Of a stretch of DNA of 64,000 nucleotides, positions 19,168-59,277 are shown piece after piece. The position numbers were made by a program, and so were the translations under genes. The notes beneath the pieces were generated by a model. It was not told where the DNA came from. It saw nothing but the letters and a program-made list of their open reading frames with translations, and searched no databases. This DNA comes from Chiloscyllium plagiosum (Eukaryota): NCBI RefSeq assembly GCF_004010195.1, contig NC_057758.1, positions 3,773,428 to 3,837,427 on the forward strand. The letters are read 5' to 3'. The first letter of the stretch is position 1. Every line of letters starts with the position of its first letter.

Positions 19168-19667
19168 NNNNNNNNNNNNNNNNNNNNNNNNNNNNNNNNN
19201 NNNNNNNNNNNNNNNNNNNNNNNNNNNNNNNNNNNNNNNNNNNNNNNNNNNNNNNNNNNNNNNNNNNNNNNNNNNNNNNNNNNNNNNNNNNNNNNNNNNN
19301 NNNNNNNNNNNNNNNNNNNNNNNNNNNNNNNNNNNNNNNNNNNNNNNNNNNNNNNNNNNNNNNNNNNNNNNNNNNNNNNNNNNNNNNNNNNNNNNNNNNN
19401 NNNNNNNNNNNNNNNNNNNNNNNNNNNNNNNNNNNNNNNNNNNNNNNNNNNNNNNNNNNNNNNNNNNNNNNNNNNNNNNNNNNNNNNNNNNNNNNNNNNN
19501 NNNNNNNNNNNNNNNNNNNNNNNNNNNNNNNNNNNNNNNNNNNNNNNNNNNNNNNNNNNNNNNNNNNNNNNNNNNNNNNNNNNNNNNNNNNNNNNNNNNN
19601 NNNNNNNNNNNNNNNNNNNNNNNNNNNNNNNNNNNNNNNNNNNNNNNNNNNNNNNNNNNNNNNNNNN
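19168..19667. other. Assembly gap
   Basis: Run of N. Confidence 1.
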
Positions 19668-35809: not shown

Positions 35810-36580
35810 AGATATCTGCCTTAAACAGCTTCTCAGGCAGATGTTCCATATTTCTGCTATCCTCTGAATGAAACAAAAATATCTAATTTCACTTCTCAAC
35901 CAATTATTCATCAGCCAAAACTATTACTCTCTGGTCTTAGACACGCCTGCAGTGTGGAAAGTTTCTCACAACCATTTCTGTTTATAACTCCCAAGACATT
36001 GTTTGCATCAATCCGAATTCCCCTCAGCAACCTCTGCCCCGAGGAGAATAAACACAGTCTGTCAATTCACTGATCATAACTGCGATTTTAATCCCAGGCA
36101 ACATCATAGTCAATCTCCTTTATACCCTCTCCTATACACAGCTCTCGTTCCGATAATGTGGTGACAAGCACTGCACATATTATTCCATGTGTGGATGAAC
36201 CAATGTCTTACAGGATTGTAATAAATTTTTTTTGCTCCTATACTCCAATTGGAAATGATGACTAGCATTGTGTATGAATTCTTCACCATCCTTTTTAACT
36301 GTGCTGACATCTTCAAGGATTTATTAACTTGTACACTAAGACCCCTTTGTTCTTCAGTACCCCCTGTGGACCGAACAATCATTAGGCATGTGTTTCCCGT
36401 TTCAGACATTGCAAAATGCTTATGACACTTATCATAATTAAATTACACCTGCCTAATTAAGCAGCTGATCATTATCAGACTGTAGCCTGAGACCATCCTC
36501 CTCACTATTACCAACACCATCAAATTTCGAGTCATCTGAAAACTTCCCAAATATCCATTTTACGTTCTTAGCCAACTTTT
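35810..36580 (-). mobile_element. Degenerate CR1-type LINE
   Basis: GTEEQRGLSVQVNKSLKMSAQ and FSDDSKF remnants. Confidence 0.75.
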
Positions 36581-36859
36581 ATATGGAAAGTCCATAATCA
36601 GGAAATACAGTTTTGTTATTTAAAACTAATATAAACAAGCACTTCTTTCTTCTTAGAGTGTTTTAAACCTTTTGAATTTCCATTTTGAAAAGGCAACTGT
36701 GCAAGCTCTTTAAGTATTTTTATGGCATATTCACAGAGATTTGTGATAATCAACGGGACGAAAACTTATCAAGATAATGTAGTAATGCAGAGTTAAGAAG
36801 ACACCATGATCTAATTGAATAAAAACTGGAAGAAATATGCATAATATAGATTAGATGAA

Positions 36860-37065
36860 AAAAATTCTGGAAAAGATCAACAGGTCTGGCAGTTTCCAGG
36901 GAGAGAAATCATAATTAATGTTTTGGGTCGAGTGACCCTTCCTGAGGAGTCAGGTTCATTTATCCAGTTCTGAGGAAGTATCAGACGACTAGAAAGGCTA
37001 TCACTGACTTCTCTGCACAGATGCTGCCGAACTTGCAGAGCTTTTCCAGTAATTGCTGTTGTACA
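36860..37065. mobile_element. Degenerate fold-back Penelope-like terminus pair
   Basis: ctggaaaagatcaacaggtctggcag ... inverted as gctgccgaacttgcagagcttttccag. Confidence 0.6.
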
Positions 37066-37559
37066 TTGTGTTATTGATTTGCGGGCTTGCAGAAATGAAA
37101 GGCTGAGTGGTCTACAGTTTCTCTTATATTATGTGTATGAACGACTCCACGGAGAACGTTTGGCTGCCTCTCCAACCGATACCTGCTGAACAAATACGAA
37201 CATTCTTTCTGTGTGTTCTGCCCCTAAATGGTTCACTCGTCTCCTAATGCACTTCAACGTTGGTGTTAAATCTCCTCCCTGTTTGCACAATGTGGATAGA
37301 ATTCACACAAATTTTGTTTTTTCTTGGTGTTCGGTCAGCATGCAGGATAAATTTTGTCTCCTGTTCCGAACAAGTGTGGCTCCCAATTTCCATCCCTGCC
37401 TTTGAGCTCAGAACGCGAGAAAACGGTGAGTCTCAGTGTGATGCAACAGGGTGATGCCTAATTTCTGTCTGAGTGAAACATCACGCCTCCTATCCCTTCC
37501 CCAAAGAAAGATGCAGAATAATTCAGCGACTTTGCCTGCAGGCTATGGTGATCAATCAT

Positions 37560-38560
37560 CGAGTCAAAGAATGTAGGCGAGGCACTTCAGCCCAATTGAG
37601 TCGGCATCGTGACATGTGAAACAAAAGCTACACTTGTCACACATTCCAAAACATAGCGCTTCGCCTTCAATGTTCGGGCATTTCATGCGGTTTATGCAAG
37701 ATCTTTTCAAAAATTGCGAGGTTTCCCAGCTGAACTACACTCCCGGCCAAATAATTCCAGATCCCACAATCCTCTCGTTGAAGCGTTTTCCCCTCAACTC
37801 CACTCCACACCTTTTTGCCTTTCAATTTCAAATTATGCCACCTGGTTATTGACCGTTCGACTGAGGGGAGCTGCGTTTTACTGCTCACTCTTGTCCGTGG
37901 CACTATGACTCTTGCACACATCAAACAGTTTTCCTCGCTATCTTCTCTGCAACAACCCGTGCAGCGCTTGCTTCCCTTTGTCGCTAAACCGTTCCATAGA
38001 ATTTCAAACCGTACAGCACAGGAACGGCTCCTTCTGCCCACCATTTTACCATTTTAAACTAATTCTATATGCCTGCATGTGCTTTGTATCTCTCTATACT
38101 CTGTCCATGCATGTATCAATCTAAAAGCATTTTAAGCTTTCCTATGGTATCCACTTCTGTCACCTCCCCTGGCAGTGTGGTCCAATGAGCTCAGCTCTCA
38201 CTTAAAAAAACAACTTTACTTACATATTTGCATAAAGCGTATTCCCCTCACCTTAAATCTCATTACACCGGTATTTGACATATCCGCTCTGGGCGAAAGG
38301 ATATCCAACCGGCAACCTATCCTCGCATCATTTTTTTTGTGCTTCTGACACGTCGCCCCTCCTACTCCCATACTCGATCGGAAACGATCCAAGTTTTTGC
38401 AGTCACCCCTTGCAGCTAAACCTCTTCTATCCTGCCACACCTCTTTTGGAGCCTCCCCAAACCATCCATATCGTTGCTGTGCTGTGGTTATCCGGACTGA
38501 ACATAGTCTTCCGATGGCTGTGTAACCAAAACCCTGCAGCTAAGCTACGACAGTGACAAC
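37560..38560 (-). mobile_element. CR1-type 3' fragments
   Basis: TRWHNLKLKGKKV and FKVRGIRF remnants with tails. Confidence 0.6.
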
Positions 38561-39599
38561 GCCATCATGGTGTCTTGCCTGTTTTTTGTGACTGCTGCCC
38601 TCCTCGCAGTTACTGTGTTAGATGAATGACCTGAATGAGAAATGAGACATGGACAATTAATTTTTGCTGGTGTCATTCAGTTTTATTCACGTGTCTGAGA
38701 AAGCAATGCACCAGGGCTCGCTGGATTAACACCATGAAATGAAGCCTGAATTGAAGAGATGACGGATATCTCCGATCGGAAACTCAACTACTTTCCAACG
38801 TTGTTATGTTACCTTTTCTTCATCGCTGGCAAGAAAGGCATGCAGCAAACTTGGAATTGTGGGCATGTTCCTGCATTCCTTACTGAAACATCAGGGGCAC
38901 AAAGCAAGAAGGATGCAGATTGTTGTCTCCCGTTTCTAAATAGAATTTATTGGGGTCGCAACAGTGCACAATGCTTGAAATACTTTCTCCTAATTGTTTG
39001 TGAAGACCAGACCCGTGTGCACTTCTGTGGCTCTGGCCTGATATTGATATAGCCGATTAATAACTGGTCAGTTTGTTCACACTGTGCAGCCATTTGGGAA
39101 GAGAGACTGCAACGTTCCTGAGCAGTTTGCCCCAAGAAGTGAGACGCGATTGGAAACATTAGCTGGCATAAAAGTGAACAGATCCCCTGGTCTGTAACTC
39201 AGTGGTTTCATTATTCAGATAGCTGTTGGGATTTGCAACCCGCTGCGAGGGAGAGAGGTAAAGGTAGGATTCAAAAGAGACTTCGATATTCATTTGAAGG
39301 GGATGAATTGAGAGGAACGTGGCAGATACAATGGATTGAATGGTCGCGCTGTGAACTGGAAAATTCAACGATTCTTATATGATGGATAGCTGACCAAGCC
39401 TTGTTCAAAGGGGGGTGGTTTCTGACCAATCTCAAAGGAAGAGATAGATGGCGTTAATTTTAAACAGTTTCTGCTGCAACAGATATCTTGACGCATGGCC
39501 AATATAGTCAGATTTATTAAGACAGCATATATCAAAGAAGACCGGACTTAGAGGGATGCGGATATCATGAAATTTTCAAACTGCAACCATTGCATATAT

Positions 39600-40230
39600 C
39601 AGACCAAACGATGGAGGAGCCAACGTAGGCTGTTCAGCCCATCGACTCTGTTCTGCCATTCACTGAAATTGTGAATGATCTCATCATCCTCAAATCCAAT
39701 TTTTCTCAGACTTCATCGATTCCATTGCGACTTGAAAAAACATCTGTCTATCCGACCTTTGAACATACTGAATTTGTGAAGCTCGACAGCCCTCTTGCGT
39801 AAAGAAGTCCCTGGAGTTTCAACAATCCGATTGAAGAAACTCGGCCTCAACACTGTCTTAAATCGTCGACACTTTGTTCTGAGATGAGGCCCTCTGATCC
39901 TAAACACTGCGACAAGGGCAATCGACCTCACATCAGTTTAACGGTAAAGTCCTTAAAGAGTCGTTCATTCTTCAATAAATTCATTTCGTATTCTTCGAAA
40001 CCGTAATGTGTTCTCATCCAATCTACTGAACCCCTCCTGCGAAGAGAGTACCTCCATAACAGGCATCAGCCCAATGAACTGTCTGTGGTCTGCCTTTCTT
40101 CAGATAAAGTGCTCGAGAACTGTTCACAATATTCCAATGTGCTGACTAGTGTTTTGTTTTTAATTTAGTGAAACATTCTAATTTTTTTTAAAAGCCAATG
40201 CATTTGAAATTAAAGTCCGGCAAACCCATG
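39600..40230 (-). mobile_element. CR1-type 3' fragment
   Basis: RIRGPHLRTKCRRFKTVLRPSFF...FKGRIDR remnant. Confidence 0.65.
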
Positions 40231-41479
40231 CACTTAATAAAACAAATCTGGTGAAGTTTTTGCAAATCCATCTGCTACAGAGATGTTATAACACACCTTT
40301 GGAGCAGGTAGAATTTGAACCCTACATTGCACCACGACATCCCATGATCATTACGTTGTCGCATATCAATCGCACGTCTGAGAAGCCAGGAAATATCTCC
40401 TTGGCGATCAATACTTGCAATAAGAAAGAATGCAAGCGTACAAAGTTTTGGACAGACTGGGAATTACGATTGTTATCTTTCTGTGTGCATTTCTTTTCTT
40501 TTCCAAGATTACACAAAAAGGAAGGAATGAATGTTGATGTGAATGAACACATATGATTTACCCGAACGGCAGCAAAGAGTATAGTAGCTATCGTTGAAAG
40601 CAGTGCTTCCCTCGTTTGCCCACGAGAAGATGTGCAAATCGCTGCAAGTCAGATTAACTGGAGTACTTGCAATTATTGTTGACTTTCACAAACACCAGGT
40701 TTCCCCGCAGTAAAAGCAGTGTCGCCAACATCATCACTGTAGTTGTGAGAGGAAGGATGACAAGACTGAAGCACAGATTCTCATTTTATGGGTTCAAAGA
40801 CTGCGCTAGTGGCTTTCATCACTGACAGAATGATGACTGTCACCTGTTTGAATTCATTTAAAAATTAGAGCACTAACTGATACATGGAGTGAATGGAATG
40901 GAAGCTTACCACTGACTCCTTCAAGTTTACAGTATGTACTGAACAAAGTTATTGGCCTGAGTAATTAATGAGCGGAAGAAGACCAAAATAAATTACCCAT
41001 AGGAATTCAGGAAGACAATAAGGCCATTTAGATTCTCGAACCTGCTCAGCCGCTCGTATAACCATATGTTATCGGTGTGTTAACACCATATTCCTGCCTT
41101 TAATCCATATCCCTTGACACTAATGCTCAATAAAACTGTATATCTCAGATTTAAACGGAACAACTGACTTATTATTCACCCCCATTTGAGTACGAGAATT
41201 CCTGAGGGCCACTACTCTTGGTGTGCAGAAGTGCTTTCTATTATCTCTCCCGAATGACTTCAACCTCATTCTTACAAAATGATGTGGACATATCTTACTG
41301 GACCCAACAAATATTGCCTATTATTATTATTTGCCCTCACCAGAAGGTAGTGGAGAGCTGCCTTCTTCATCTGTTGCAGTCTCTGTGCTGTTGGTTGACC
41401 GACAATACCCTTAGGGAGGGAATTCTTGGATTCGTCCAAGCATATCTTATACTTTTAATTCAACTGTGGAAATAATTAC

Positions 41480-42852
41480 ATCTTACGTCTGTAGTCAGCA
41501 AAGATTTGGAAAGAATTCTGAAGGACAGCATTTATGACTATTTGGCATAGCATATTGTGATTAAAAACAGTCAGCATGGCTTTGTGAGGGTCAGGTCATG
41601 CCTCACAAATATTTTTGAGTTCTTTGAGGAGGTGACGAGACAGGCTGACGAAGGTCGAGCAGTGGATGTGGTGTATCTGGACTTCAGCAAGGCATTTGAT
41701 ACGGTTGCCCGTGATGGGCTCATTCATAAAGTCAGGACGTATGGGATACAGGGAGATGTGGATATCTGGATTCAGAATTGGCAGGATGTCAGAAGGCAGA
41801 GAGTCGTTTTAGCTGGAAGGTATTCTGCCTGGAGGTCAGTGTTGTTTGGCATCCCGCAGGGCTCTTTTCATGGGCCTCTGCTCTTTGTAGCTTTTATAAA
41901 TGACTTGGATGAGGAGGTTGAGGGGAGGGTTAATGAATTTCCAGATGACACAAAGGTTGGAGGTCCCGTTGATAGTATGGAGGGAGATTGCAGGCTGCGG
42001 TAGACAGAATGCAGAGCTGGGCTGTGAAATGGAAGATGGAGTTCAACCTGGATAAATGCAAAGTGATGCATTTTGGAAGGTCGAACTCGAATGCTGAATA
42101 TAGGTGTAAAGACAGGATTCTTGGCTGTGTGGAGGAACAGAGGGATCTGGGTATGCAAGTACAAAGATCCCTCAAAGTAACCACCCAAGTTGATAGGGTT
42201 GTTATGAATGCATATGGTGTTTTGACTTTCATTAACAGGGATATCGAGTTTAAGAATCGCAAGGTTTTGCTGTAACACTACAAGTCCCTGGTGAGACCAC
42301 ACTTGGAATATTGGGTCCAGTTCTGGTCGACCTACTTTATAAAACGATACAGAGGCTGTGGAGAGGGTGCAAATAAGGTTTAGCATGATGCTGCCTGGAC
42401 TGGAGGACTTGTCTTATAAAGAAAGGTTGACTAAGCTCAGACTTTTTTGCTTGGAGAGAAGGAGGAAGAGAAGATACCTGATAGGGGCGTACAAAATAAT
42501 GAGTGGAATAGATAGAGTCAAGAGCTAGAGACTTTTACCCAGGGCAGGATTGACTGGTATGAGGAGTCATAGTTTGAAGATATTAGGAGGAAGGTGTAAA
42601 GGAGATGTCAGAGGAAGATTCTTCACGCAGACAGTTGTGAATGAATGGAATGCTTTGCCAGCTGTGGTTGTGTAAGCAGAATCATTAGGTACATTTAAGC
42701 GACTGCTGGACATGAACATGGATATCAGTGCGGTGAGAGGTCCGTAGGATAAGTTGCTATATTTTACATTAGGACTATACCTCGGCACAACATCGTGGGC
42801 CAAAGAGCCTGTTCTGTACTGTTCTTTTCGATGTTCTATTTTCTATGTTCTA
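41480..42852 (+). mobile_element. CR1/HER1-type LINE RT and 3' end
   Basis: [59 protein letters not shown]; (ttctatg)n-like tail at ~42820-42852. Confidence 0.93.
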
Positions 42853-43254
42853 GTTTACGTTTATCTCCCTTAATTACCCTGTTGACGCCCGGAAGAATTT
42901 GATTAGACCACTTCTTCAACTTCCGGATTCCAAATATGATAAACCGAATATGTCTTATCACTTGTCGAAAATTAAAACGTGATATTCAATTCTTGTACTT
43001 ATGTCCTTGTAATGATCTCCTTCCAGATCATTGTTCTTCTTCCTGAAGTCTTTGGCAGAGTGAATTATTTTAGTTGGGGGTATTCCCAGAGATTTGGAGA
43101 TCTGCTGCTATCCCTCGTATTCTGCAGTTGACTCTGTCAATGGATAATAGAAACAGATCTAGAATCTCAGAATCCCTACTGTGTGGAAGCAGGCGTTTCA
43201 GCCATTGTTTCCAAAGCGACTGTCTGGAGACCATCCCAGCCAAACCCACCACCA

Positions 43255-43468
43255 TACTTTGATCCAGTCACCTCCCATTTACTACGGCCAATCCACATAA
43301 CCTGAATCAGAATAATATTGGAGTGTGTGAAGAAGGCGAATTCCCCAAAGGCAACGCACGCCAATGCAGGGAGAATGTTCAAAAGGCCAGTCACTCATGG
43401 GTGGAATCGAAACAAGTTTGTTGACACTGTGAGGCAGCAGGGTTAGCCACTGAGCAACCGTGCCACTC
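43255..43468 (-). mobile_element. HE1-like V-SINE
   Basis: Minus strand gtggcacggttgctcagtggctaaccctgctgcctcacagtg...tttcgattccaccc (A/B boxes) plus V-domain remnant. Confidence 0.8.
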
Positions 43469-43974
43469 AATAACCTTGCACAGTTTATTGCACAAATATT
43501 TGGGAGAATAACAAAAACTCCACATTAGCAGAACAATGTAAGAAGTAGGAAGTATTGAATATAATTTGGAAATGTACAGCTTGATGAATGTTTGTGAGGG
43601 GCAGATGATGCTTCAAAAAACTTATGGAATTATTTGAGAAAGTGACAAAATACATTGAATAGGGGATCGCAGTTGATGTCGAGATGAATTTTAGCATGGA
43701 GATTGCTAATTCAGAAAGTAATGACACGTGGTCTACAGGGACATCTGGCTACTTGGATACAGTTTTGGCTGTCCCACAGAAGAAATAGAGTGGTAGTAGA
43801 TGGAAGGATAAAATATCGGCACAATATCGAGGTTCGAGGGCCTTTACTGTGCTTTACTGTTCTGTCCTATGCTATCGTTAAATAAAAATGATGCAGGCTT
43901 GATAGCTGAAAAGTATCCTTTCTTGTCTGTTTCTGAAAATACAGGCGCAAAGGTTGTGTTGCCTACTTCTGTCA

Positions 43975-44055
43975 TTTCTCTCTGTCTCTCTCTCTCTCCC
44001 TCTCTCTCTCCCGCTCGCTCTCTCTCTCTCTCGCTCTCTCTCGTTTTCTGTCTCC
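43975..44055. repeat. (CT)n microsatellite
   Basis: Imperfect tc repeats. Confidence 0.85.
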
Positions 44056-44929
44056 CTGTCATTTCATGAGGTAATATCAATCAGACTGGATGAAGCACAT
44101 GCTTACATTCTGCCGGCCATGCTTAATGGGCTGTCAACGTGATACACACAAGATGCAACCAATAACTTTTCCTGACGAGTCATTATTACTGACAGAGGAC
44201 TTCTTGATCTTATAAGCTTGCGAACTGGCTTCGGCCCGGAGATGTGAGGCAGTCAGTGGAGAATGTCGAAGGCACCACTCTTGGCACACAGTGTACTGAT
44301 GCTTGTACGGTCCGTTCCTTCTGACTCATTTTTCGAACCTGCCGAATACGAAAATCAGTATTTTTTCTCCCATTGCACCATTCGTCGGTATATGAGAAGG
44401 TAATTCACTCCCTCCATTCCGACATCACGAAAACTGTTTCAGCACTGAGTCATGTCCAAAATTCATTTCTTCGTTGAAACAGTATTCACTTCCATCAAAT
44501 AAGACCAATGCTTTCCTGATGGATCAGAATGTGTTTCTCAATTTATTCATTAACATTCTTCTAATTGTGTCCATTCCTGTCAGTCATCCGCACATTGATC
44601 ATTGCCATCTGCAGTCCACATCCATCCCCTCTTCTGGGCCATCCCCTTATTTTGACACTCGGCCTTTCAATATCCCAACTCTTAACCCTTCTATCATAAA
44701 TCTGAAGATTGAATCCCACAGTTAGGAGACTTGTTCTGGCACAGAATGCGACCGTTTAGCTCTTGATTTAATACCAATTCAAATGTTGATGGTACCTCGC
44801 AGCATTGAATAATTAGTTATTTGAAATTTATTCTTAAAGGAATCTACTATAAAGAAGTAATTGTTTCTGCAACCGTAGAAGGCATCAATAGGTCTGTCGT
44901 TTGAATATGCTGGACAGTTGTGATCGCCT

Positions 44930-47680
44930 TACTTTAGTTGTTTAGGAGGCAATTCAGAGGAGGTTCAGTCAATTGAGACAAGTATTGAAGATTTTGCTAA
45001 TGAAGAAGATTGAAACAGTTAAAACCTCTCAACTCCCAATAGTTAGAAGAATGGGTAGAGATGAAATCAGAATCTGTAAAATGATATTTACGATTGATAA
45101 AATTGACGTGGAACGGATGATTCTTCAGATACACTTATGAGCAATGTCAAAGCAGTTGGAGCCTCTAATCCGCCAATAGTTAGAAGAATGAGTGGAGATG
45201 TAATCGTAGTTTGCAAAATGTTAAGTACTCTTGATAAAGTCGACATAGAACCGATCGTTCTGCAGATCGGGCAATGCAGAAGGACAGGCACAAGTTTTAG
45301 AATGAAGCGTACAGATTGAAAGCAGAGATGAGAAAAAATACTTTTCACAAAGTGTCGTTAATCTGTGGAACTCAGTGACGCAGAGTGCAGTGGATGTCGC
45401 GACATTAAGTAAATATAAAGAGGATATGAACAGATTTTGAACTGACAACGGGTTGAAGGGAGACTACTGGAATGTGGCGTTGGGCTTGAGGTAAGTTCAG
45501 CAATGATTGCATGAAATTAGCGCATACTTGAGTGTTTGACTACGTTTCTCCTTTTCCTGGTTCTTGTCCTCGCACACAATATAGTTAACGCCGGGGTCGA
45601 TTTTTATAATGAGACACTGACATAATCCCTGCACACTTCCCTCCAGCAGCACGACTGTGTAGCGTCCACAAGGCAGACATGATTCAAAATTTTCTCTGCA
45701 TACTCTATCGAATTGGATCGCCCATGCCAAGTAGTACTCACAGATTTGATCATATTTCTCTGTGTGTATGTTCGAGCAATGCCCGAATTTTAAAAGCATT
45801 TGTTTTCGAATTATTTGAAGGCAGTCTACCATCCCCCTCCCTTTCAGCACTACCAGACGTCCAAATGTCCCATGCCTGTTTCCCACCAATTGCAGCTGGT
45901 TAAGACTCACCGAGTTAGGTAAAACGTTAGCTGCGGAACAATGATGGTGGGATGTTGTAGCAGGGCATTTGGAAGATTACAAAGGCAGTTGGGGTAAAAA
46001 TAACATGGTTTGCTGAAACATCATATTTTTACGAAGCTATTTGAGTTAATTGACAACACGAGTTGTAGACAAAGGGCAACCCTTGGACGTGGTTTACTTA
46101 AATTTTAAGAAGGCTTCATATAAGGTGCTCCACCGCGGAAATAGAATGTGCAATGTGCAAGGGTGGCACAGACAGAAGAATGACGATTCTGGTAGGAAGT
46201 AGACAGGAGTTAATTTGGGACGGGTTCAGCTTTGCAATTCGTGCGGCAGAAGGTTACAGGCTGGAACATTAAATGTTTGCTGTATTTACAAATCGTTCAA
46301 ACACAGAGATGTGCATTACATTTTCCAATTTTGTGGAGCGCAGAAAGATAGCCCGACAGAAAAATCCCTCAATAATCCAGTTCTTCACATGAGTTGAGAA
46401 TTGGGTAAAATAAGTTAAGGAAACGCACTTCGGGGAAAAAAATCACGACAGGAGTGTAGTCGAGACTTCTGGGTCATGACGAGGCTCAAAGGAATAGAGG
46501 TATCTTCGCGTCATTGTCCATATGTTAATGCTACAATTAAGAGCGACCATTTCCTTTATCATTCGCGGCATAGACTTTAAAAGCAGAAGGTTATATTGGA
46601 CCTGCACAGAACTTTAATTTGGGCACAGTTGAAATATTGCTTGTACAATACAGGAAGGATGCACCTGCACTTCTGGAGAACGGGAAGAGAATCTGGCAAG
46701 TTCAATTAAGTCTTGAGTTTCCACACGAGCAATTTCTCCACATCGCCGCCTTAATTCTTCAACCCCTTATTCTCAAACTGTGGCCTCCCGTTCTAGATAC
46801 CGACGACGTCAGGAAACATCAGCTCGATCTTAACTTTGTCTGTCTTTTAGGCAGCTCACACAGACTCACAAAGTCATACAGTTTTGTGAATTTTGTTTTG
46901 TGAATTTAGAAATAAATGCAAAAGGAGGTATTCAATGCTTCAGTATGACAGGGTATCGGTGATACTGCATCTGGAGTGCAGAGAACAAAAATGAATTTCA
47001 AATATGCAGATGACTCGAACCTTGGGAGAAATGGAAACTATGGGGAGGATATTGCAAAGATGGAAAAAGACACTGAAAAATTGTTGGAGTTGGCAGTGAA
47101 GAGGATGACACATTTCCATAGAGGGAAATGTAAGGTGATGCACTTTGTTGGAAGAATACTGAATGGTAAAAATACAATTGGGAGTGGGTGGTGCAGGTGG
47201 TAGAACGTTAAAGAAGGCCAAGCGCAAATGAACATGTATGTATCTGCTCACAGATATTAGACCTTGGCTGGACCGAGGGAGCGAACAGCAAAGAAAGAAT
47301 AAGTTAGGTGGGACTGTTCTTACTGGAGAGAAGACGGCTGAGAGGAGATCGGATGGATGTTTTCAAAATCATGACACAACACTGAACGGAGTACATAGGG
47401 AGAAGGCTTTACCATTTGCAAAAGTAACAAGAACGAGAGGGGCGTACAGTTAACGTGCTGGGCAAATGAAGCAATGCTGAAGAGAGGAAGTTTTGTATTC
47501 ACCCTGCGACTACGAGGGGTCTGGAATGCATGGCCTGGAAGGATAGGCAAGGCTGAAGTTGGGAGATTGTTGGGATGGAAATGGAATGCAGGTTTTGAGG
47601 AAATTGTCCAGAAATGTATATCAGGTGACAGAATAGGACTGTAAACAGCGGGCCAAATAGCATCAGGGTGTGCCCTAAAT
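44930..47680 (+). mobile_element. Several highly degenerate CR1-type fragments (interspersed with unassigned sequence)
   Basis: RRMSGDVIVVCKML, LDVVYLNFKKA, KYADDSNLG and KCKVMHFVG remnants. Confidence 0.55.
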
Positions 47681-47776
47681 AATCTGGGGGATTCCATGAC
47701 ATTGGAATTCGCCCTTCTAACTCAGGCTTACACTGGACCAGAACAGACGTATGTAAGTGTCTTTAATTCCTTGCAG

Positions 47777-47907
47777 GGTATAGAACCGACTGTGAAAAAG
47801 CTGGTGGGATGTGCTCGGTCAATGTGTGCAGAGCACTACAAGTGGAATCTGTCGTGAGGCTGTGCCCATTTGAACAACGCTGTTGTAAGAATCGGGACTT
47901 CATTTGA
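47777..47907 (+). CDS. Terminal coding exon of a beta-defensin-like peptide gene (partial CDS)
   Basis: Acceptor ctttaattccttgcAG (47775-47776); phase 1, uninterrupted frame xGG-YRTDCEKAGGMCSVNVCRALQVESVVRLCPFEQRCCKNRDFI-TGA; C-X6-C-X4-C-X11-C-X5-CC with GGxC. Confidence 0.8.
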
Positions 47908-47976
47908 TGATTGCGTTGACTGCGAAGGTTGTGAGGGGTTTGACTGCTACAATGCGTTGTTCCTTATGAGCTGTAA

Positions 47977-47982
47977 ATTAAA
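47977..47982 (+). promoter_or_regulatory. Candidate polyadenylation signal of the defensin-like gene
   Basis: ATTAAA 70 nt after the stop codon. Confidence 0.45.
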
Positions 47983-48154
47983 CCGGCTGAATTGTTAACC
48001 GCACATTTTCCATGTCCCATGTGTTGCCACATAGTCTTGCCTGGGAAAAGTCAGGATGTCTGGCATAGAGAGAGAGGGAAGCAGAGTCAACATTTCGAGT
48101 CTGGTTGGACTTTTTCTGCAGAGAGAAACGCAACTGTTCTTCCAGGAAGTATGG

Positions 48155-48250
48155 ACAGAGAGAAGAAGAGTGAGCGAGAAAGAGAGAGGGAGAGAGAGAG
48201 AGGGAGAGACAGAGACAGATAGAGACAGGGAAAACACAGAGGGAGAGACA
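48155..48250. repeat. (GA)n-rich microsatellite
   Basis: Imperfect ga/gaca repeats. Confidence 0.85.
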
Positions 48251-48269
48251 TTGTTCAAGAACAGGGAAT

Positions 48270-48790
48270 GAAAAAATATTCGCGAGTGCAGAGGAATGAG
48301 GTTGGAAAGAAATCAGTCATAATCGGGGAATTGATTCAAAGTTACAGAATACTGAGAAACCTGGATAGAGTGGACATGGCGAAGATGTCTCCGTGAATAG
48401 GAAAGGCTGGGATCCGAGCGCACAGCTTGAAAGTAAAAGGACAACCCTCTTGAACTGATTTAAGACAGAATTTCTTCATCTATAGGATGGTGATTCTTGA
48501 AACTCCTTGTCCCAGAAGGCTGTTAAAGCCAGGCCATTAAGTGCATTATAGTCAGGAATAGTTAGGCTCTTGGTTCGTAAGACGATCAAGGGTTATGTGG
48601 CGGGGGAGTGGAAGGTGGACGGCAGAAGCCTGCTGTTGAGAAAGCTATCGGCTTTGATCGAATGGTGGAGCAGATTCAGGGGCAAAATGGTTAAATGCTG
48701 CATCGATGTTTCACAATCTTGTGATTTTGTGGAATGGGATAGCAGGCTTGAATGTCCAAGTCGCCGATACTCGTCCTTATGCCTGTGTTG
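48270..48790 (+). mobile_element. CR1-type 3' fragment
   Basis: GELIQSYRILRNLDRVD...AHSLKVKG...IKGY remnant. Confidence 0.7.
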
Positions 48791-49708
48791 GCGGCTCGTC
48801 AATGCAGATGGAGCTCCACATTTTCAAATGTCAATGCTAATAAAAGGGCGTTAGTCGAGGTTGAACAGCAAGAGATTACCACACTGTCCGAGAGCTCACG
48901 CTGAGAAATGATCTCGCTGTCAGCGGGTTTAAATAGTGGGAGCGCATTTCGATCGGAGTGTCAGTGTAATATGGATGGAATGGAGAGTCAAGCGGAATTA
49001 CAACTCGCTGTGAGCTGATATTACACTGAGCACAGCAATGTCAATTTGTCAGTAATGAAGGAGCAGCAAGCACTCTCCCGTACGGGCTGCACTGATGTCT
49101 GCACTCACTACGACAAAGGGAGATCTGGTGGGGCAATAGACTGTTGCAGACTCAGTCCTGATACAATCCTGCACTAACACATAGTCAATCTAACGTGAGC
49201 GCTAAGTGGAGGCGAGTTGGTCTGGAACAAACATTGCAGGGTCAGAGGCAGGAAATTGGGGGAAGGATTACGCTGCAGAAAGATCTCCAGATATACCAAG
49301 ATGACCACAAGATAGCGAGACTTTGATTCCTGTTGCTATTCTCTACCCTCACCTACCCACTGATAAGTAAATTAACACCTTCATCCATTGAGGCTCTGTG
49401 GACAGAATCCTAACCGGTGTCTCTGATAGTTCCAAACAATTCTCCCCACACGTCTACCGGAAGACTGGGTCTAACCATCCGGAGGGGGTAGCAAACTGGC
49501 ACCCCATTGCGAGGAGATTCCAGTCGTTTGGAGCAATTCCTGGGTCCCAAGAGTTCATTGGACCAAACGTAGACAATGGCAGAGATCTACGCATTGAATG
49601 TATACCCCCCTCTGAGAAAAACTGGGAAGTGAGCAAGCAGTTTTACCACAGGAGAAAAGAACTCTACATCTCGCACAACGCCTCAGCTTTTGAATGCATG
49701 TCATTAAC

Positions 49709-49711
<3 letters not shown>

Positions 49712-49749
<38 letters not shown>

Positions 49750-49760
49750 GCGTGTGTGTG
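49712..49760. repeat. (GT)n microsatellite
   Basis: tgtgtg run. Confidence 0.95.
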
Positions 49761-50049
49761 CCGGTGAACATGTATAATAAAAGTCTGTCCAAACATTTGA
49801 AGATAAGTCAATCAGAAATCCATTTTAATGCACGATGAATTTAGAGACATATAGCTGTTTTTATTCATTCGTGACACATAGGCCTCTCTGGCTGTCCAGC
49901 ATGTATTGCCCACCACTAGTTTCCACATGAACAAGGTGGCTGTGAGTGCTTCCTTGAACAGCTGCTGTCCATGTGCTGGCGGTAGACTCATAGTGCTGTT
50001 TGGGAGGCTGTCAGGAATGAGATCCAGTGACACAGAAAGAAAGGCCTGA

Positions 50050-51225
50050 TTGGATTGGGGCACATTCACTCAGCTAGTCACCACATTGTGGCCTTGTTTC
50101 AAACATGGACAACATAACTGAATTTCAGAGATAAGGGAACTGACAGATTTTGATTTCAAGGTCGCATTCGACCGAGCATGAACAAACCTGGAATAAATAG
50201 TTAGCAAGGGGTAAATACACCAGTGGTTGGGATCATACCCTGAGGATAGGCCAAATGTCGAGGTTATAGGAGGTCAGTAATCTCAGTTCCAGAACATCTC
50301 GACATGTGTTCCTCAGGGTCGTGCCCAAGGCCAAATTATCTTCAGCGATTCAATCATAATTTCATGCGTGTGGATTTTGATGGCGAGTGTCCAATGTTCC
50401 TCATCATTTCCATCCACGTAGTTACGGAAACAGTCAATTCTAAAGTGCACAAGATCGAGACGATGTGTGGGCTAGGCTGACAAGTGACAGGGCGGAAGTG
50501 AGGACTGCTGATGCTGGAGAATATAGTCGAGAATGTGGTTCTTAAATAGCACAACAACATCCGAGGACGACGAAAATCGATGTTGCAAACAAAGCCCTTC
50601 ATCAGGAAGTGCCTTTGTCCGAAACATAGATTTTCCTGGTCCTCGGATGCTGCCTGTCCTGCTGTATTTTTCCAGCACCACATCCACGTCATACAAATGC
50701 TAAGGAGAGACAATATAACAATTGCCCCTTCAAATTCAATGGTGTTACAATCAATGAGTCCCCACTATCAATATCCTGGGGTTTACATTTGACAAGGAAC
50801 TCAACCGGACTTACCACATAAATACATTGGATACAGCAACTGGTCAGAGACTTGGAATTCTGCGGCAATTCTGTGACCAAAGGCGCTACATAATCTAAAA
50901 GACACAGGGCATGAGTTTTGTGGATTACTGCCATCTTGTCTGGATCAGTGCAGCTGCAACAACACTTGAGAAGGCTCGCATCATCCAGGACAAAGCACAC
51001 TGCATGAATGCCATTATATTCCCAACGATCCAATCGTTCCAACGCCCATGCTCAGAAGCAGCACAATGTACTTTATTCAGGACGTATTGACGAAAGTCTG
51101 GAAGGTTCCTTCAGATCGCACTGTCAAAATCCAAGACCATTTTGCACTCGAAGGAAAAGATCAGCAGTTATATGGGAAAGCTTTAGCTGCAAGATTTCCT
51201 CCAAGTCACTCACATACTGACTTCG
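50050..51225 (+). mobile_element. Degenerate CR1-group LINE (second family) RT fragment
   Basis: DFKVAFDR, VPQGRAQGQIIFS and INILGVT-like remnants; interrupted by a PLE insertion at ~50497. Confidence 0.7.
50497..50683. mobile_element. Fold-back Penelope-like insertion inside the LINE
   Basis: aagtgaggactgctgatgctgg...cccttcatcagg followed by the inverted arm tccgaaacatagattttcc...tttccagcaccac. Confidence 0.75.
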
Positions 51226-51279
51226 AACAAATAACAAAAGGAAGTGAAGAACTGGAAGAGGCTCTCAGACTCCAAATCT

Positions 51280-53390
51280 TTGCCAAACATTATGCCTTAA
51301 TTAAACTAAAACTCAAGCATTCTTCCCTTGAACAGTCCGTATCTCTCTACCACGTAAGCATCCAGATGCATCTTAAATGTTGCCAACGTGATTGCTTCCA
51401 TCACCTGATGTAGCAGTCCGTTTCAAACTCCGACCAAACTCGTTGTGAAATTCTTCCCTTGCACATTTCCATTGGTGAATACTGCTAAATGTCTTCATTA
51501 AGCATCTCTCTACTTTCCGTGGCTCAATGCATAATTTCAACTCCGGGTCCTTTATTGTTGCATGTGACAACAGTTTCGCTTGCTGCATTCTTTCTTCTCA
51601 CATATACATGAAAAACCTTGGATTCTCATCGACGTGGCTTGAGAAAAGCATTTCGTGGCCCCCTTTAGGTTTCCCAATTCCACGTTTAACATCCTTTCTA
51701 GTTTTCTCTATTTTCCCAAGTGCTTCGTCAGTTTGTACCTGCCTGGATCTATTCTACACTTCTTTTTTTTCTATTGGCTAAGCTTACAGTTCCCCTTGAT
51801 ATCCACGTTTCCTGATTCTTGGCAGGACTGACCTTCATTTCTTTTAAAATGTCCTGAAGTTTAACCAAATTTTCTGTAAAACCCTCCCAATTTGCAGATG
51901 CAGATTTGCCCTCAAATAGTATGGCCTCGTTTCTGGGAGCATTGTCCGTGCACTGTCTCAAAGAAACCTCCTGATCAATCTAATAATCAGCTCTCCCTCA
52001 GATCGCCTGGATCGAAGTGAGACGCAATCAACAATAGAAAGGTTCACATCACCAATCACATCTAACCTGTTTTCTTCAAACATTTTCAGTATCTCACTAT
52101 GCATCTGCTCCTCTGTCTCCTGCAGTTCCTTTGAGCCCGGTGACGTCTCTCTACCTATTCATACTCTAGGTCATGCCTATCTCAGTCTCACATTTGTCCC
52201 ACTGACTGGCTCGCTGTTCCGATACTGATCCCATGCCACGCTGGGCTGAATCCTCCCGAAGATATATAGCAAATATATTTGGAAGTATATTGCTTTTCCG
52301 TCACTGTCACGGGGTCAAAGTCATGGAATTCCCTCCCTGATACCATTGTGGGTCAACCCGTAGGAGGTGGCCTTCAGCCATTCATGAAGGATGCTCATAA
52401 CCGCGTTCTAAAGGTGGATTAGGTGTCAGCAATAAATGTTGTCTCGCCAGTAAATTACACGTTCCGAAAATGAACCTAAAAATGAAATTCCATGTCATGT
52501 TCAGGTTCAAATATCCAAGTTCATCGGGAAAGACAGAAGGCAAGGAGAGCGTTGGCCTATATTTCAAAGCTAATAGTGTGCCAAGTTAATTTGTGCAAAC
52601 TATACAAGGTACATTTCAGACCCCTGCTGAAATTTTGCCAACAGTTTTTTTTTATCGCCATGGTAAGGAAAGATTTGATTGTTGGTTGAGAAAGAATGTA
52701 TCACTCATCCATAATTTCCATCCGTTTATTGCCTTGGCGCACATATATATTAACCTATGTCAGCTCTGGTCAATGATTCAGAACACGCCATCTTTGAAGC
52801 TAACATATCAATCACGGTCCGAATTCACGATTCAATCTTTTTTAGAAAAGGACTAGTGGTTAGGCCATTAATGAAATACTGCAAAAATTCTCGACGCCTT
52901 GCACGAGGATGGATGTTAATGAAACTTGAAAAGGTTCAGGAATGACTGACAAGGATGTTGCCAGTGTTGTACCGTTTCAGGCAGAAGCTGGAGTGTTGGG
53001 TGCTGAGACATGGCCACACGGAGGTTTGTGATATCATGAGGAGTACGAATAGGTTAAACAGACACGATTTTTTTTTTTCGTCAGGGTGGTGGAATCCAAT
53101 ATGAGAGAGCATCGACTTAAAATGAAAGGGCTAATATTTCTAAGGCATACAAGTTACAAAACGTTTGCATGCAGCCAATGCCATAAGTATGGAATGAGCT
53201 GCTGAATTAAATGGTGGATGCTGAGACATCTAAAACGCATCTGGATGTGTATTTGAGTGGGAAGGGCTGAGAATGATATTGGCAAATACTGGCAAATGGG
53301 ACGAAATTTATAGAGGATATCTGTTGGCATTGATGCGTTGGAGTGAAACGTCTCTTTCTGCCCGGTATATCACTGAGACTCTATGAACTC
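51280..53390. mobile_element. Mixed degenerate CR1-type fragments (minus ~51280-52260, plus ~52490-53390)
   Basis: FEGKSASANWEGF...PWI-like remnant on minus; LVVRPLMKYC, KLEKVQ and ctatgaact tail on plus. Confidence 0.55.
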
Positions 53391-55067
53391 ATGCACATGC
53401 CAGGGAATGCTGAATTCTGATTAAGCGTAAAAAAGATCCTTAAACAAAATGGTTAACATTGCATCTGGGTGATCTTTATGTCCAGGCCAATGGAGAGAAT
53501 GGAAGATCTTGGACTGTGCTATTGACTTTGTTAGTGCTGGTGGTTGTGGTGGAAAGGTTTGCATTCTTATTCAGTCCAAAGCATCAATAGACAAGTAACT
53601 GATGGTGGACCTGAAAATCTGAAAAAAAGTCTCCACAATATCCCATTAAAGAATTATCCACTGGAAATTTAACAGCGCCTTTTTATCCTCCCTCCAGTGA
53701 TCTTATTGAACTTGAAATGTGTTCCCTGGTTTTCTGGTGTAGTTTTCTGTAAAAAGCTGTAGTCAGAGCATCTTGATGATTCAGTGCACATCTCTGGTCA
53801 GCACACTACGAATGCCTTTCCCGTGTAAGTATTTTTGTCTTCCTCATGTTAATCTGTCCACCACATGTAATGTATCCAACCATTCCATACTGATTATTTT
53901 CCGCCCGTGCCTCTGGATTACTCCCTCAATTTGGCAAACGATGTGTTTAATATGAGATCCAGTTTTTCGCTGACCCCTCTTCCATACCTGCATTTGGGAA
54001 GATTGAACAGCTTTTCCAGCAGGACATTTTTTTATTTATGTAACCCTCTATCGCACTTTGCAGTGAGTGTTTGATCGAAGTTTTATGCTACACACCTGGA
54101 ATTTGGAACTTCAATCGAGAGAGTCATGGAACGTTATTTGGAGTCAACACATTTGGTTGTCTTCTTGGTCGGTTTACTCTAATTAAACACGTTGATTTTC
54201 AAACAGATTACTACTGTCATGGGACGTTTGCTCAATATAAAAAATGCTTGCATTTCAGATATAACCATTTTTCAGAAGTAAAACTTATTGACTCCACAAC
54301 ATCAGAGCCTACTTGTAAAAATGAAGTAGTCGGTAATCGTCCAGGTACAGAATATTTATTGCACTATACTTGCAGCTGTTGGTGTCACTTGTAAGACTAT
54401 CACTCCAATGTTGTTATATAAGATAATATTTAACTGCAATGTAATGTTCATGTGTGAAATGTATCTAATTTGCCGGGATTTGTTAATTTCTAAGTCAAAT
54501 CTTTCTCCCAGAGGCTGAACGGGAATTCTTCTTGTGCTCTCACAACAGAAATCTCACTACAGATTCATAAACACTCGGAAAGTTCTGGAATTCTAAAAAT
54601 AAAACGTTTGTTCTAAATAATTTCCTTTGTGAAATATTGTGCCATATATTATTAGAAAAAAAGTGCTTGAATTGTTTGATAAATATCCTTGAGGGCGTTT
54701 ATGAATTTTCTGCAGGAAATACATAAATGAGATGATTAGATATTAACAAAACCACACGGTGATTATTCTTTCTTGATCCTCGTATTTAATGTGTCTACTG
54801 ATTTCCATACACTAATGCAACTTTCAAGTCTTGGTGATTGAACCTGTTTCCATTTGGCACAGTTTTGATTGACTGAAATCTTAGTACACTGAACAGCAAA
54901 GTTTAGTAACTTTTGTTACATGTCCGAAATTGTGACACATAGGGTTAAGTTCATAAACATCAGGGCAAGAGCTTTCATTTTGTTATTTTCTCCTGGTAAA
55001 AATAATGATCTATGTTATATTCTTTGATAAGTATTCATACTGCATTATTTCCGTTGGTTGTGGTTCC

Positions 55068-55753
55068 CAGGACAGAACCCCACTGGTCCTCATCTACCAC
55101 CCCACCAATCTCCATTTACAGCACATCATCTGCCGTCATTTCCGCCACCTCCAAACGGACCCCACCACCAAGGATATATTTCTCTCCCCTCCCCTATCAG
55201 CATTCCGTAAAGACCACTCCCTCNNNNNNNNNNNNNNNNNNNNNNNNNNNNNNNNNNNNNNNNNNNNNNNNNNNNNNNNNNNNNNNNNNNNNNNNNNNNN
55301 NNNNNNNNNNNNNNNNNNNNNNNNNNNNNNNNNNNNNNNNNNNNNNNNNNNNNNNNNNNNNNNNNNNNNNNNNNNNNNNNNNNNNNNNNNNNNNNNNNNN
55401 NNNNNNNNNNNNNNNNNNNNNNNNNNNNNNNNNNNNNNNNNNNNNNNNNNNNNNNNNNNNNNNNNNNNNNNNNNNNNNNNNNNNNNNNNNNNNNNNNNNN
55501 NNNNNNNNNNNNNNNNNNNNNNNNNNNNNNNNNNNNNNNNNNNNNNNNNNNNNNNNNNNNNNNNNNNNNNNNNNNNNNNNNNNNNNNNNNNNNNNNNNNN
55601 NNNNNNNNNNNNNNNNNNNNNNNNNNNNNNNNNNNNNNNNNNTGCCCGAAACGTCGATTCTCCTGTTCCCTGGATGCTGCCTGACCTGCTGCGCTTTTCC
55701 AGCAACACATTTTCAGCTCTGATCGCCAGCATCTGCAGTCCTCACTTTCTCCT
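55068..55753 (+). mobile_element. Penelope-like element 3' half (contains gap)
   Basis: DRTPLVLIYHPTNLHLQHIICRHFRHLQTDPTTKDIFLSPPLSAFRKDHSL before the gap; terminus tgcccgaaacgtcgattctcc...ctcactttctcc after it. Confidence 0.9.
55224..55642. other. Assembly gap
   Basis: Run of N. Confidence 1.
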
Positions 55754-58082: not shown

Positions 58083-59115
58083 TTAAGACATAGGAGTGGA
58101 AGTAAGGCCATTCGGCCCATCGAGTCCACTCCGCCATTCAATCATGGCTGATGCGCATTTCAGCTCCACTTACCAGCGTTCTCCCCGTAGCCCTTAATTC
58201 CCCGAGACAACAAGAATCTATCAATCTCGGCCTTCAACTGGACTTCATTGAGGGACCAAAACTGGACATAGTACTCCAAATGGGGCCTAACCAGAGCTTT
58301 ATAAAGTCTTAGTAGTACATCTCTGCTTTTGTATTCCAACCCTCTTGAGATAAGAGACAACATTGCATTCGCTTTCTTAATCATGGACTCAACCTGCATG
58401 TTTACCTTTAGAGAATCCTCGACTAGCATTCCCAGATCCCTTTGTGCTTTGGCTTTATTAATTTTCTCACCATTTAGTAAGTAGTCTATGCTTTTATTCT
58501 TTTTGCCAAAGTGCAAGACCTCGCACTTGCTCACGTTAAATTCCATTAGCCATTTCCTGGACCACTCTCCCAACCTGTCTAGATCCTTCTGTAGCCTCCC
58601 CACTTCCTCAGTACTACCTTCCTGTCCACCTAACTTCGTATCATCGGCAAACTTCGCTGGAATGCCCCCAGTCCCTTCATCCAGATCATTAATATATAAC
58701 GTGAACAGCTGCGGCCCCAAACACTGAACCCTGCGGGACACCGCTCGTCACCGGCTGCCATTCTGAAAAAGAACCTTTTATCCCAACTCTCTGCCTTCTG
58801 TTAGACAGCCAATCCTCAATCCATCCCAGCAGCTCACCTCGAACACCATGGGCCCTCACCTTGCTCAGCAGCCTCCTGTGTGGCACCTTATCAAAGGCCT
58901 TTTGTAAGTCTAGATAGACCACATCCACTGGGTTTCTCTGGTCTAACCTACTTGTTACCTCTTCAAAAAATTCTAACAGGTTTGTCAGGCATGACCTCCC
59001 TTTACTAAATCCATGTTGACTTGTTCTAATCAGACTCTGCTCTTCCAAGAATTTAGAAACCTCATCCTTAATGATGGATTCTAGAATTTTACCAACAATC
59101 GAGGTTAAGCTAACT
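58083..59115 (-). mobile_element. Young CR1-type LINE RT fragment with internal deletion
   Basis: SQHGFSKGRSCLTNLLEFFEEVT...SGVPQGSV; LGPQLFTLYINDLD, KFADDTK; jumps from VQFWS directly to the terminal LKAEIDRFL. Confidence 0.93.
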
Positions 59116-59277
59116 AAGGAGACCTAACTGGGGGAACAGTCTGTCAATGCATGTGGGATGGATCACATTCCTAATATTACCACTGGAATTGAGCAAAATT
59201 TCCAATCTTGGAATTCCAATCGGTCATAATCTCATTAAGTCACGGAACAGTCTCGACGGGCTGTGAGTCTATTGTGA

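Follow-up and report, generated by a model that had tools for sequence, protein, structure and literature searches.

The six-cysteine exon flagged in the initial annotation of this Chiloscyllium plagiosum locus is probably the mature-peptide exon of a two-exon gene of beta-defensin type, with a candidate first exon at 44263-44383, the second exon at 47777-47910 and a polyadenylation signal at 47977. Positions are those of the window, i.e., the whole 64-kb stretch of DNA analysed here. Membership of the flagged exon in the beta-defensin family is probable, and that this copy is a working gene we rate somewhat below an even chance. About 18 copies make up the young subfamily to which the gene appears to belong, and this subfamily would lie inside a much larger and diversified beta-defensin family.

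The six-cysteine exon and its reading frame

On re-reading the window, the pyrimidine-rich acceptor, the GG followed by an open frame and the tandem TGA TGA were all found where the initial annotation had placed them (Table 1). The ATTAAA hexamer after the stops is also present and begins 66 nt past the second TGA, where 70 nt had been given. The exon 2 peptide contains six cysteines spaced C-x6-C-x4-C-x11-C-x5-CC, with GGMC preceding C2, and a net charge of +2 (seven Lys or Arg against five Asp or Glu). Direct counting thus reproduced each of these traits as first described, namely the spacing, the GGxC before C2 and the charge of about +2. The peptide fits the cysteine ranges of beta-defensins, C-x(4-8)-C-x(3-5)-C-x(9-13)-C-x(4-7)-CC. 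A relaxed version of the beta-defensin cysteine pattern exceeds chance in the window, with one occurrence in the six frames of the 64 kb and none in 100 mononucleotide shuffles.

The lack of an initiating ATG in the exon frame had also been pointed out. Since a TAA at 47764-47766 closes the frame upstream and no in-frame ATG precedes C1, the frame is readable only as a spliced exon.

Table 1. Features of the candidate gene and of its duplicated surroundings in the window
Feature	Position	Strand	Remarks
TATA-like box TATAAG	44211..44216	+	47 nt before the candidate ATG; retained in group-A copies (GATCTTATAAGC)
Candidate exon 1, coding part	44263..44383	+	From the ATG, 40 codons (MSKAPLLAHSVLMLVRSVPSDSFFEPAEYENQYFFSHCTI) and 1 nt (C); donor in phase 1
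Phase-1 donor GTCGGT	44384..44389	+	GTAGGT, GTAGGC or GTAAGT in the other seven group-A copies
Putative intron, 3393 nt	44384..47776	+	Holds pieces read as decayed LINE, ~44946-45590 and ~46050-47640
Polypyrimidine tract and AG acceptor, phase 1	47761..47776	+	14 nt 5' of the C1 codon; tract tctttaattccttgc; AG at 47775-47776
Exon 2, coding part	47777..47910	+	GG, 42 codons (YRTDCEKAGGMCSVNVCRALQVESVVRLCPFEQRCCKNRDFI), then TGA TGA (47905-47910)
3' untranslated stretch	47911..47982	+	Closes with the polyadenylation signal ATTAAA (47977-47982)
Segmental duplication, ~19 kb, gene inside	36132..55060	.	blastn; sister copy on the same contig

Close copies of the exon and the duplicated segment

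The animal's own 3.56-Gb assembly was searched in six frames with the exon 2 peptide, which gave 22 matches. Close copies number 18 with the window copy included, 17 at E<1e-7 and one partly masked by N, a count that may be inflated, as the assembly consists of about 102,000 contigs and some copies on small contigs may be haplotype duplicates. The exon is not the single hidden survivor that it had been taken for, since this genome also contains 17 close and many distant paralogues of it.

The frame and all six cysteines are preserved in six of the 18 close copies (the window copy and those labelled L002, L003, L004, L007 and L008). The other 12 are broken, five by stops, six by the loss of at least one cysteine and one by a one-base insertion, and three of the six youngest copies are disabled. 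The acceptor AG is retained in 11 of the 17 close copies with a readable site and lost in L002, L014, L010, L015, L016 and L017. The last four have CCG at this place and are also the ones with two stops, or with a single stop inside the loop; L002, otherwise intact, has CAT instead of CAG. All nine group-A copies have the ATTAAA signal. The reading frame is preserved by the indels in the C-terminal tail, namely the loss of 27 nt in the window copy and a difference of 15 nt between the subgroups. After the CC, the other members of the subfamily have a 13-residue tail, RRSQRSHGDPDFI, of which the window copy retains only RDFI. The charge of the subfamily consensus, by count, is about +5.

The 2-3 kb on either side of exon 2 align at 70-85% in the same ~20 places, so that the flanks were copied with the exon, and the only high-copy repeat in these flanks is the stretch at ~47306-47540. 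The repeated unit is therefore, as its alignments indicate, a low-copy, gene-sized duplicated segment and not a transposon. The sister of the ~19-kb duplication that holds the window copy is found on the same contig at a distance of ~0.3 Mb (C49, ~4.12-4.14 Mb), with ~84% identity by blastn, and is frameshifted in both exons.

One rival explanation takes the cysteine pattern for a chance open frame in a low-copy repeated unit (a segmental duplication or a LINE-transduced flank) that has nothing to do with defensins. The duplication of the flanks together with the exon over 2-19 kb would suit it, as would a decayed LINE on the same strand that stops ~130 nt 5' of exon 2. We nevertheless consider it highly improbable. 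Shuffled sequence never produced the pattern, and spreading by LINE 3' transduction is out, as homology extends 0.7-7 kb past the polyadenylation signal, hence well beyond the point where such a transduction would have ended. The more distant paralogues weigh against it as well.

A wider family with a shared acceptor position

The genome holds dozens of more distant putative six-cysteine exons besides the close copies. When 20 of the weaker matches were fetched, 17 showed the six-cysteine pattern. A second subfamily, ...SSCEFVGGVCRANFCHPGEVYIVVYCPEGLRCCKKK*, was reached through a weak match (43% identity) and has 21 genomic matches at E<1e-3. With two of its members added to the 17, the pattern is present in 19 of 23 further loci. 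The window's 10-Mb contig carries 19 matches of both searches together, all between 3.30 and 8.28 Mb.

The phase-1 acceptor proposed for exon 2 found support at the DNA level in these loci. A pyrimidine tract and an AG placed exactly 14 nt before C1, in phase 1, were found in 16 of the 19 distant motif-bearing paralogues, as in the window; among the exceptions, one has its AG at 2 nt and two have none. Several of the 19 are recent duplicates of one another, so that they represent closer to ten independent lineages. The shared acceptor position is not merely an inherited flank, because the introns of different lineages cannot be aligned. In an alignment of 16 distant paralogues, all six cysteines were invariant, and so was a Glu located four residues past C3. 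Retention of the cysteines, of this Glu and of the acceptor offset by paralogues whose flanks are unalignable argues against a chance frame.

Relationship to beta-defensins

A comparison with the Pfam beta-defensin families, which the initial annotation had proposed as a check, gave a divided result. The exon 2 peptide itself matched Defensin_beta with 14.1 bits (E=0.049), below the gathering threshold of 21, a shortfall that would fit a chance frame. Its other Pfam match, to the tick carboxypeptidase inhibitor family I68 (E=0.05), is far below threshold. Only one of the six intact subfamily members matched Defensin_beta, and the other five matched nothing in Pfam. The distant paralogue L063, located on the same contig at 5.71 Mb, scored 24.3 bits (E=3e-5), above the curated cut-off of 21. 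A beta-defensin family (PF00711, PF13841 or PF17333) was matched at E<=1 by 13 of the 16 distant paralogues, three being without such a match, and a search of the whole genome with PF00711 returned five matches above the cut-off.

When a profile of the 16 distant paralogues was run against 177,635 PDB sequences, it found beta-defensin 106 (E=9e-4), spheniscin-2 (0.04) and big defensin (0.75). The same PDB sequences yielded nothing with the exon 2 peptide or with the subfamily profile. An hhalign comparison of the subfamily profile with the 16-paralogue profile gave E=4.4e-4 over 38 columns, with a probability of 34% and the six cysteines aligned. The window subfamily would lie further out than the distant paralogues and be tied to them by this profile-profile match, the exon plan and the location. 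The Pfam-passing paralogue and the recovery of solved beta-defensins by the family profile stand against an origin of the frame by chance, and the proposal of a beta-defensin-type mature-peptide exon is upheld by these two results and by the 13 paralogues that match beta-defensin families.

A HMMER search of 1.84 billion protein representatives, a library that may lack shark peptide genes, found no homologue; its sole match (E=9e-4), a low-complexity repeat protein, was rejected as spurious. No homologue was found either in a word-indexed protein collection, which may have the same gap, queried with the exon 2 peptide and with a canonical paralogue exon.

Structure prediction also favoured the beta-defensin fold first suggested for the peptide. 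The AlphaFold2 model of the exon 2 peptide, built on an alignment of 21 sequences that included beta-defensin-like paralogues, reached a pLDDT of 81.9, with a helix at residues 4-7 and three strands; an earlier run on six near-identical subfamily members only was unusable (pLDDT 50.8). The predicted fold is a short N-terminal helix and a three-stranded antiparallel sheet, in the topology of beta-defensins. Of 43 Foldseek rows, the best 15 were all beta-defensins, with TM 0.6-0.7 and a probability of ~0.9 for hBD-1 and hBD-2; the best E was 0.24, and none of the 43 rows reached E<=0.001. VIA-align superposed the model on hBD-1 with Z 4.4 and an rmsd of 1.3 A over 33 of 36 residues. For a disulfide peptide of 40 residues, such fold scores are about the most that these tools can give. 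Crotamine and a platypus defensin-like peptide were among the lower-ranked structure matches.

Candidate first exon and gene architecture

Signal exons of paralogues were sought in three 5-kb upstream stretches. In three distant paralogues, a textbook signal exon that ends in a phase-1 donor lies 0.8-2.3 kb upstream (MKSLLLLLIVLVLVEPITADG..., MQTLLSLLIALVLVQPITADGDK and MRTVVSLVLGVLVMVQPGTAEK...), and these canonical exons are a further point against a chance frame. For the second subfamily (CEFVGGVC...), no signal exon was found in the 10 kb upstream of three copies. The signal-peptide exon joined in phase 1 that had been postulated is thus clear in three paralogues, and the window copy has a candidate for it.

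This candidate exon 1, which would encode a signal peptide and a propiece, was found by tblastn with the three paralogue signal peptides as a match that is weak and, taken alone, not significant (E ~1-5, the database amounting to a few hundred kilobases). A stretch of 261 nt that includes the candidate (44180-44440) is repeated at 30 genomic places; where it and exon 2 could be located on the same contig, it precedes exon 2 by 2.7-7.6 kb. In five of eight group-A copies the ORF of the candidate is open. The phase of its donor suits the 47776 acceptor: the split codon C|GG encodes Arg, and the frame continues into the cysteine exon. The TATA-like box upstream of the ATG might act as a promoter.

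Several traits set the window copy of this exon apart. Its donor is weakened by a C at +3, and a stronger donor, AAG|GTAATT at 44400, lies 16 nt downstream; this second site is in phase 2 and would lead to a stop two codons into exon 2. The signal-like core has His and Ser where other copies carry Leu and Gly. The predicted propiece, of about 20 residues, is unusually long, acidic and aromatic, and contains a seventh cysteine. In the contig-33 copy, where exon 2 is intact, the exon 1 region is missing altogether. Both exons are visible as intact on one contig only for the window copy, the other intact second exons being located on contigs that are too short.

Other candidates for exon 1 were rejected. 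A signal-like ORF at 45503-45625 (FLLFLVLVL) has a TAG in six of eight group-A copies, has phase-0 donors only and is without an ATG in the divergent group; it is a retroelement tail, which we take to resemble a common LINE 3' tail. The match of 36861-37046 to the region upstream of the chromosome-33 copy is a palindromic short repeat and not an exon. Further combinations of an ATG, a hydrophobic stretch and a phase-1 GT in 36000-47776 (e.g., at 40430 and 44519) have poor donors and are unconserved.

Selection and intactness of the window copy

The intactness of the exon had been read as a sign of selection. In pairwise comparisons, the exon 2 core is 91-93% identical to the other group-A copies, against ~80-84% in the 110-120 nt on each side. 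On the subfamily tree, the exon required 0.30 parsimony steps per site against 0.45 for the flanks, a value equally low in 176 of 1692 sliding windows. The exon 2 core underwent four changes on the window copy's own branch, where 5.5 would be expected from the flanks (P=0.36); on inspection of the alignment, three of the four alter an amino acid and one is silent, and the in-frame 27-nt deletion comes on top of them. Between exon 1 of the window copy and that of the other intact copies there are 12-15 nonsynonymous differences but only 1-2 synonymous ones, the window copy's own branch having about 12 nonsynonymous changes to one synonymous, and its coding conservation is 0.84-0.86 against ~0.85 in the flanks, with a local peak of 0.93 over the donor region. 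There is no sign of purifying selection on the window copy. With a branch close to the flank expectation, changes that are almost all nonsynonymous and 12 of 18 close copies broken, the inference from intactness to selection is not supported.

Intactness is nonetheless an argument that can be put in figures. The substitution rate on the window branch is 0.047-0.079 per site. Over ~2260 aligned bases the window copy has 16 indels, of which 10 have lengths not divisible by three, and the single coding indel is in frame. In a neutral simulation from these rates, a two-exon copy remained formally intact over the window branch 3-7% of the time. As an argument for selection, intactness is thus weak but not worthless, because a neutral copy would so seldom stay intact.

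Two readings fit these results, a live gene under diversifying selection and a lucky young pseudogene. Diversifying selection is common in defensins, where it usually affects the mature peptide rather than the signal region. The pseudogene reading, to which we give an even chance, regards the window copy as an unprocessed, beta-defensin-derived duplicate that is untranscribed or mis-spliced, has not yet received a disabling mutation and makes no peptide. It is favored by a substitution rate on its own branch equal to that of the flanks, by a nonsynonymous excess that extends to the signal-like core, by the weakened GTCGGT donor beside a stronger one out of phase, and by the deletion of most of the C-terminal tail that other copies keep. 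The frameshifts in both exons of the sister copy, the 12 broken copies among 18 and the LINE debris that fills the intron point the same way. The nonsynonymous excess, however, is equally expected from diversifying selection on a defensin. Moreover, both exons, the ATG, GT and AG, the six cysteines, the stop and the ATTAAA are all intact, for which the neutral simulation leaves a 3-7% chance, and the lone coding indel is in frame in a copy where 10 of the 16 specific indels around are not multiples of three.

Proposed expression and function

If the window copy is a working beta-defensin-type gene, we infer its splicing, secretion, disulfide pairing and activity as follows. Transcription would start from the TATA promoter, the 3.4-kb intron would be spliced out, and the transcript would be polyadenylated after ATTAAA. 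The precursor of 83 residues would enter the secretory pathway, with its signal peptide cut near ...SVP/SD, and the propiece of about 20 residues would then be removed. The released peptide would form a short helix and a sheet of three strands, the sheet held by three disulfides, C1-C5, C2-C4 and C3-C6. By analogy with beta-defensins, the product may be a compact host-defence peptide of mild positive charge, able to bind and disrupt microbial membranes, to attract leukocytes, or both.

A working secreted peptide with the beta-defensin fold could also serve another role than the killing of microbes, as other peptides with this fold do (in the reproductive tract or egg case, as a receptor ligand, or as a toxin-like or protease-inhibitor-like peptide). 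We find this improbable. The net charge of only +2, the long acidic and aromatic propiece with its seventh cysteine, the 11-residue C3-C4 loop, the I68 inhibitor match (E=0.05) and the presence of crotamine and a platypus defensin-like peptide among the lower-rank fold matches could all be read in its favor. However, the results point to no particular alternative, the subfamily consensus is more cationic, at about +5, and the I68 match is far under threshold.

Comparison with known defensins

The candidate gene resembles those of vertebrate beta-defensins (PF00711, PF13841; human beta-defensin 1, 2 and 106, AvBD3, CpoBD13) in several respects. Both have the same six-cysteine spacing with Gly-x-Cys before C2, and both follow the same plan, with the mature peptide on one exon behind a phase-1 intron and a separate signal-peptide exon (here a candidate). 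They have in common a cationic charge and a fold of a helix and a three-stranded sheet (here predicted), and in both the genes lie in clusters shaped by duplication and decay. Unlike vertebrate beta-defensins, the exon 2 peptide falls under the Pfam cut-off and has an 11-residue C3-C4 loop without a Gly before C4. The long predicted propiece with a seventh cysteine, the charge of only +2 and the subfamily's 13-residue tail after the CC, reduced to RDFI in the window copy, are further differences, and the host here is a cartilaginous fish, a group for which the literature searched gave no published beta-defensin.

Teleost beta-defensins are likewise small secreted six-cysteine peptides of fish. 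In teleost beta-defensin genes, the mature peptide is split over two exons, with three coding exons in all. Unlike in those genes, a single exon here carries all six cysteines, which is the arrangement of mammals and birds. Crotamine, ovodefensins and platypus defensin-like peptides have the same fold and ranked below the classical beta-defensins; they gave no match at the sequence level, and no sign of a venom or egg context was seen.

The big defensins of invertebrates (horseshoe crab, PDB 2rng) share the cysteine pattern in their C-terminal domain and, just upstream of it, the phase-1 intron, according to the relevant passages of PMC7203481. These passages also describe the phase-1 intron just 5' of the cysteine-rich region as a hallmark common to beta-defensins and big defensins, and give the range of beta-defensins as teleosts to mammals. 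Big defensin was a weak match of our family profile (E=0.75). The hydrophobic N-terminal domain of big defensins is absent from candidate exon 1 and from the three paralogue signal exons; unlike in big defensins, the candidate upstream exon would encode a signal peptide and a short propiece only.

The initial annotation had supposed that cartilaginous fishes have few documented genes of this sort, and the full-text literature agrees with it. The openly readable papers searched gave no description of beta-defensins from cartilaginous fish, although unnoticed annotations may exist in subscription journals or among database gene models. The passages of PMC6795676 on antimicrobials of sharks and skates name transferrin, squalamine and kenojeinin only, and those of PMC10707392, PMC9363672, PMC10247546 and PMC4364288, which matched our search terms, added nothing on cartilaginous-fish beta-defensins. 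The kind of gene is known, and this member and its host lineage appear new.

A more specific reading makes the exon a live member of a shark-specific, fast-diversifying beta-defensin subfamily, marked by a long cysteine-bearing propiece and a C-terminal extension, in a cluster of several dozen genes over ~5 Mb of one small chromosome. We hold it tentatively, as a prospect well short of even. If it were true, it would be the first beta-defensin repertoire described for a cartilaginous fish, and the two-exon phase-1 plan, the placing of six cysteines on one exon and the birth-and-death clusters would already have existed in the common ancestor of jawed vertebrates. A large shark beta-defensin cluster on the mammalian and avian gene plan would fill a gap between the big defensins of amphioxus and the beta-defensins of bony vertebrates. 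As the plasma of this animal is rich in salt and urea, the cluster would also offer a set of natural peptides that are candidates for salt-tolerant antimicrobial activity. The flagged copy is one doubtful member of the wider family, and it is this family, in which signal exons are clear and one member passes Pfam, that is the more valuable result.

Surrounding DNA

The description of the surroundings as decayed repeats was accurate: the rest of the window is mostly retroelement debris, and a Pfam search of its 114 ORFs of at least 90 residues identified reverse-transcriptase fragments at four places. The putative intron contains reverse-transcriptase-like ORF remnants without a Pfam match, which we read as probable LINE pieces. 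One of the 114 ORFs encodes a C2H2 zinc finger.

Candidate two-exon beta-defensin genes elsewhere in the genome

Three complete-looking beta-defensin genes were found among the distant paralogues (Table). In all three, a clear signal-peptide exon with a phase-1 GT donor is followed by an intron of 0.8-2.3 kb and then by the six-cysteine exon. The gene located on C49, the window's own contig, also passes the Pfam Defensin_beta threshold. The copy in the window is a weaker candidate for a functional shark beta-defensin than any of these three genes. The long frames past the CC pair in L062, L067 and L069 may mean that the gene continues into another exon downstream, spliced from a donor just past CC, or that the peptide has a C-terminal extension.

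A second subfamily, with the pattern …CEFVGGVCRAN(F/C)C…CCKKK, has 21 matches in the genome. No signal exon was found in the 10 kb upstream of three copies. Most members carry a seventh cysteine adjoining C3, and some have tyrosine in place of C5 (YC for CC) or of C3, with the 45-46-residue frame still open.

Features identified in the window and in the genome (L, genomic loci; L076-L078, upstream stretches of paralogues; C, contigs)
Feature	Location	Position	Strand
Frame open 30-70 residues past CC	L062	112-414	-
Frame open 30-70 residues past CC	L067	295-501	+
Frame open 30-70 residues past CC	L069	292-519	+
Two-exon gene	C49, about 5.712-5.714 Mb	L076:3580-3670 + L063:289-402
Two-exon gene	C8	L077:2652-2721 + L067
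Two-exon gene	C39	L078:4133-4226 + L066
Second-subfamily example	C49	5971425
Second-subfamily example	C49	7724443
Second-subfamily example	C26	11482334
RVT_1 fragment	window	15495-16403	-
RVT_1 fragment	window	41551-42000	+
RVT_1 fragment	window	58163-59123	-
N run	window	7655-8147
N run	window	10607-11521
N run	window	19168-19667
N run	window	55224-55642

Segmental duplication and other frames in the window

About 19 kb of the window (36132-55060), including the defensin copy, is segmentally duplicated. The sister segment is found roughly 0.3 Mb off on this contig and matches it with about 84% identity; both exons of its defensin copy are frameshifted. A palindromic short repeat (36861-37046) is also present upstream of another close copy, on contig 33.

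Among the 114 long ORFs of the window, the only non-retroelement Pfam match was a 202-residue open frame with C2H2 zinc fingers (6808-7413, plus strand; zf-C2H2, E=1e-14). The reverse-transcriptase fragments derive from several retroelements, and the window contains four N runs (Table). A stop-free minus-strand frame of 159 residues (45497-45976), which gave no Pfam match, was observed between two LINE fragments; it lies within the inferred intron and belongs to the duplicated unit carrying the defensin copy.
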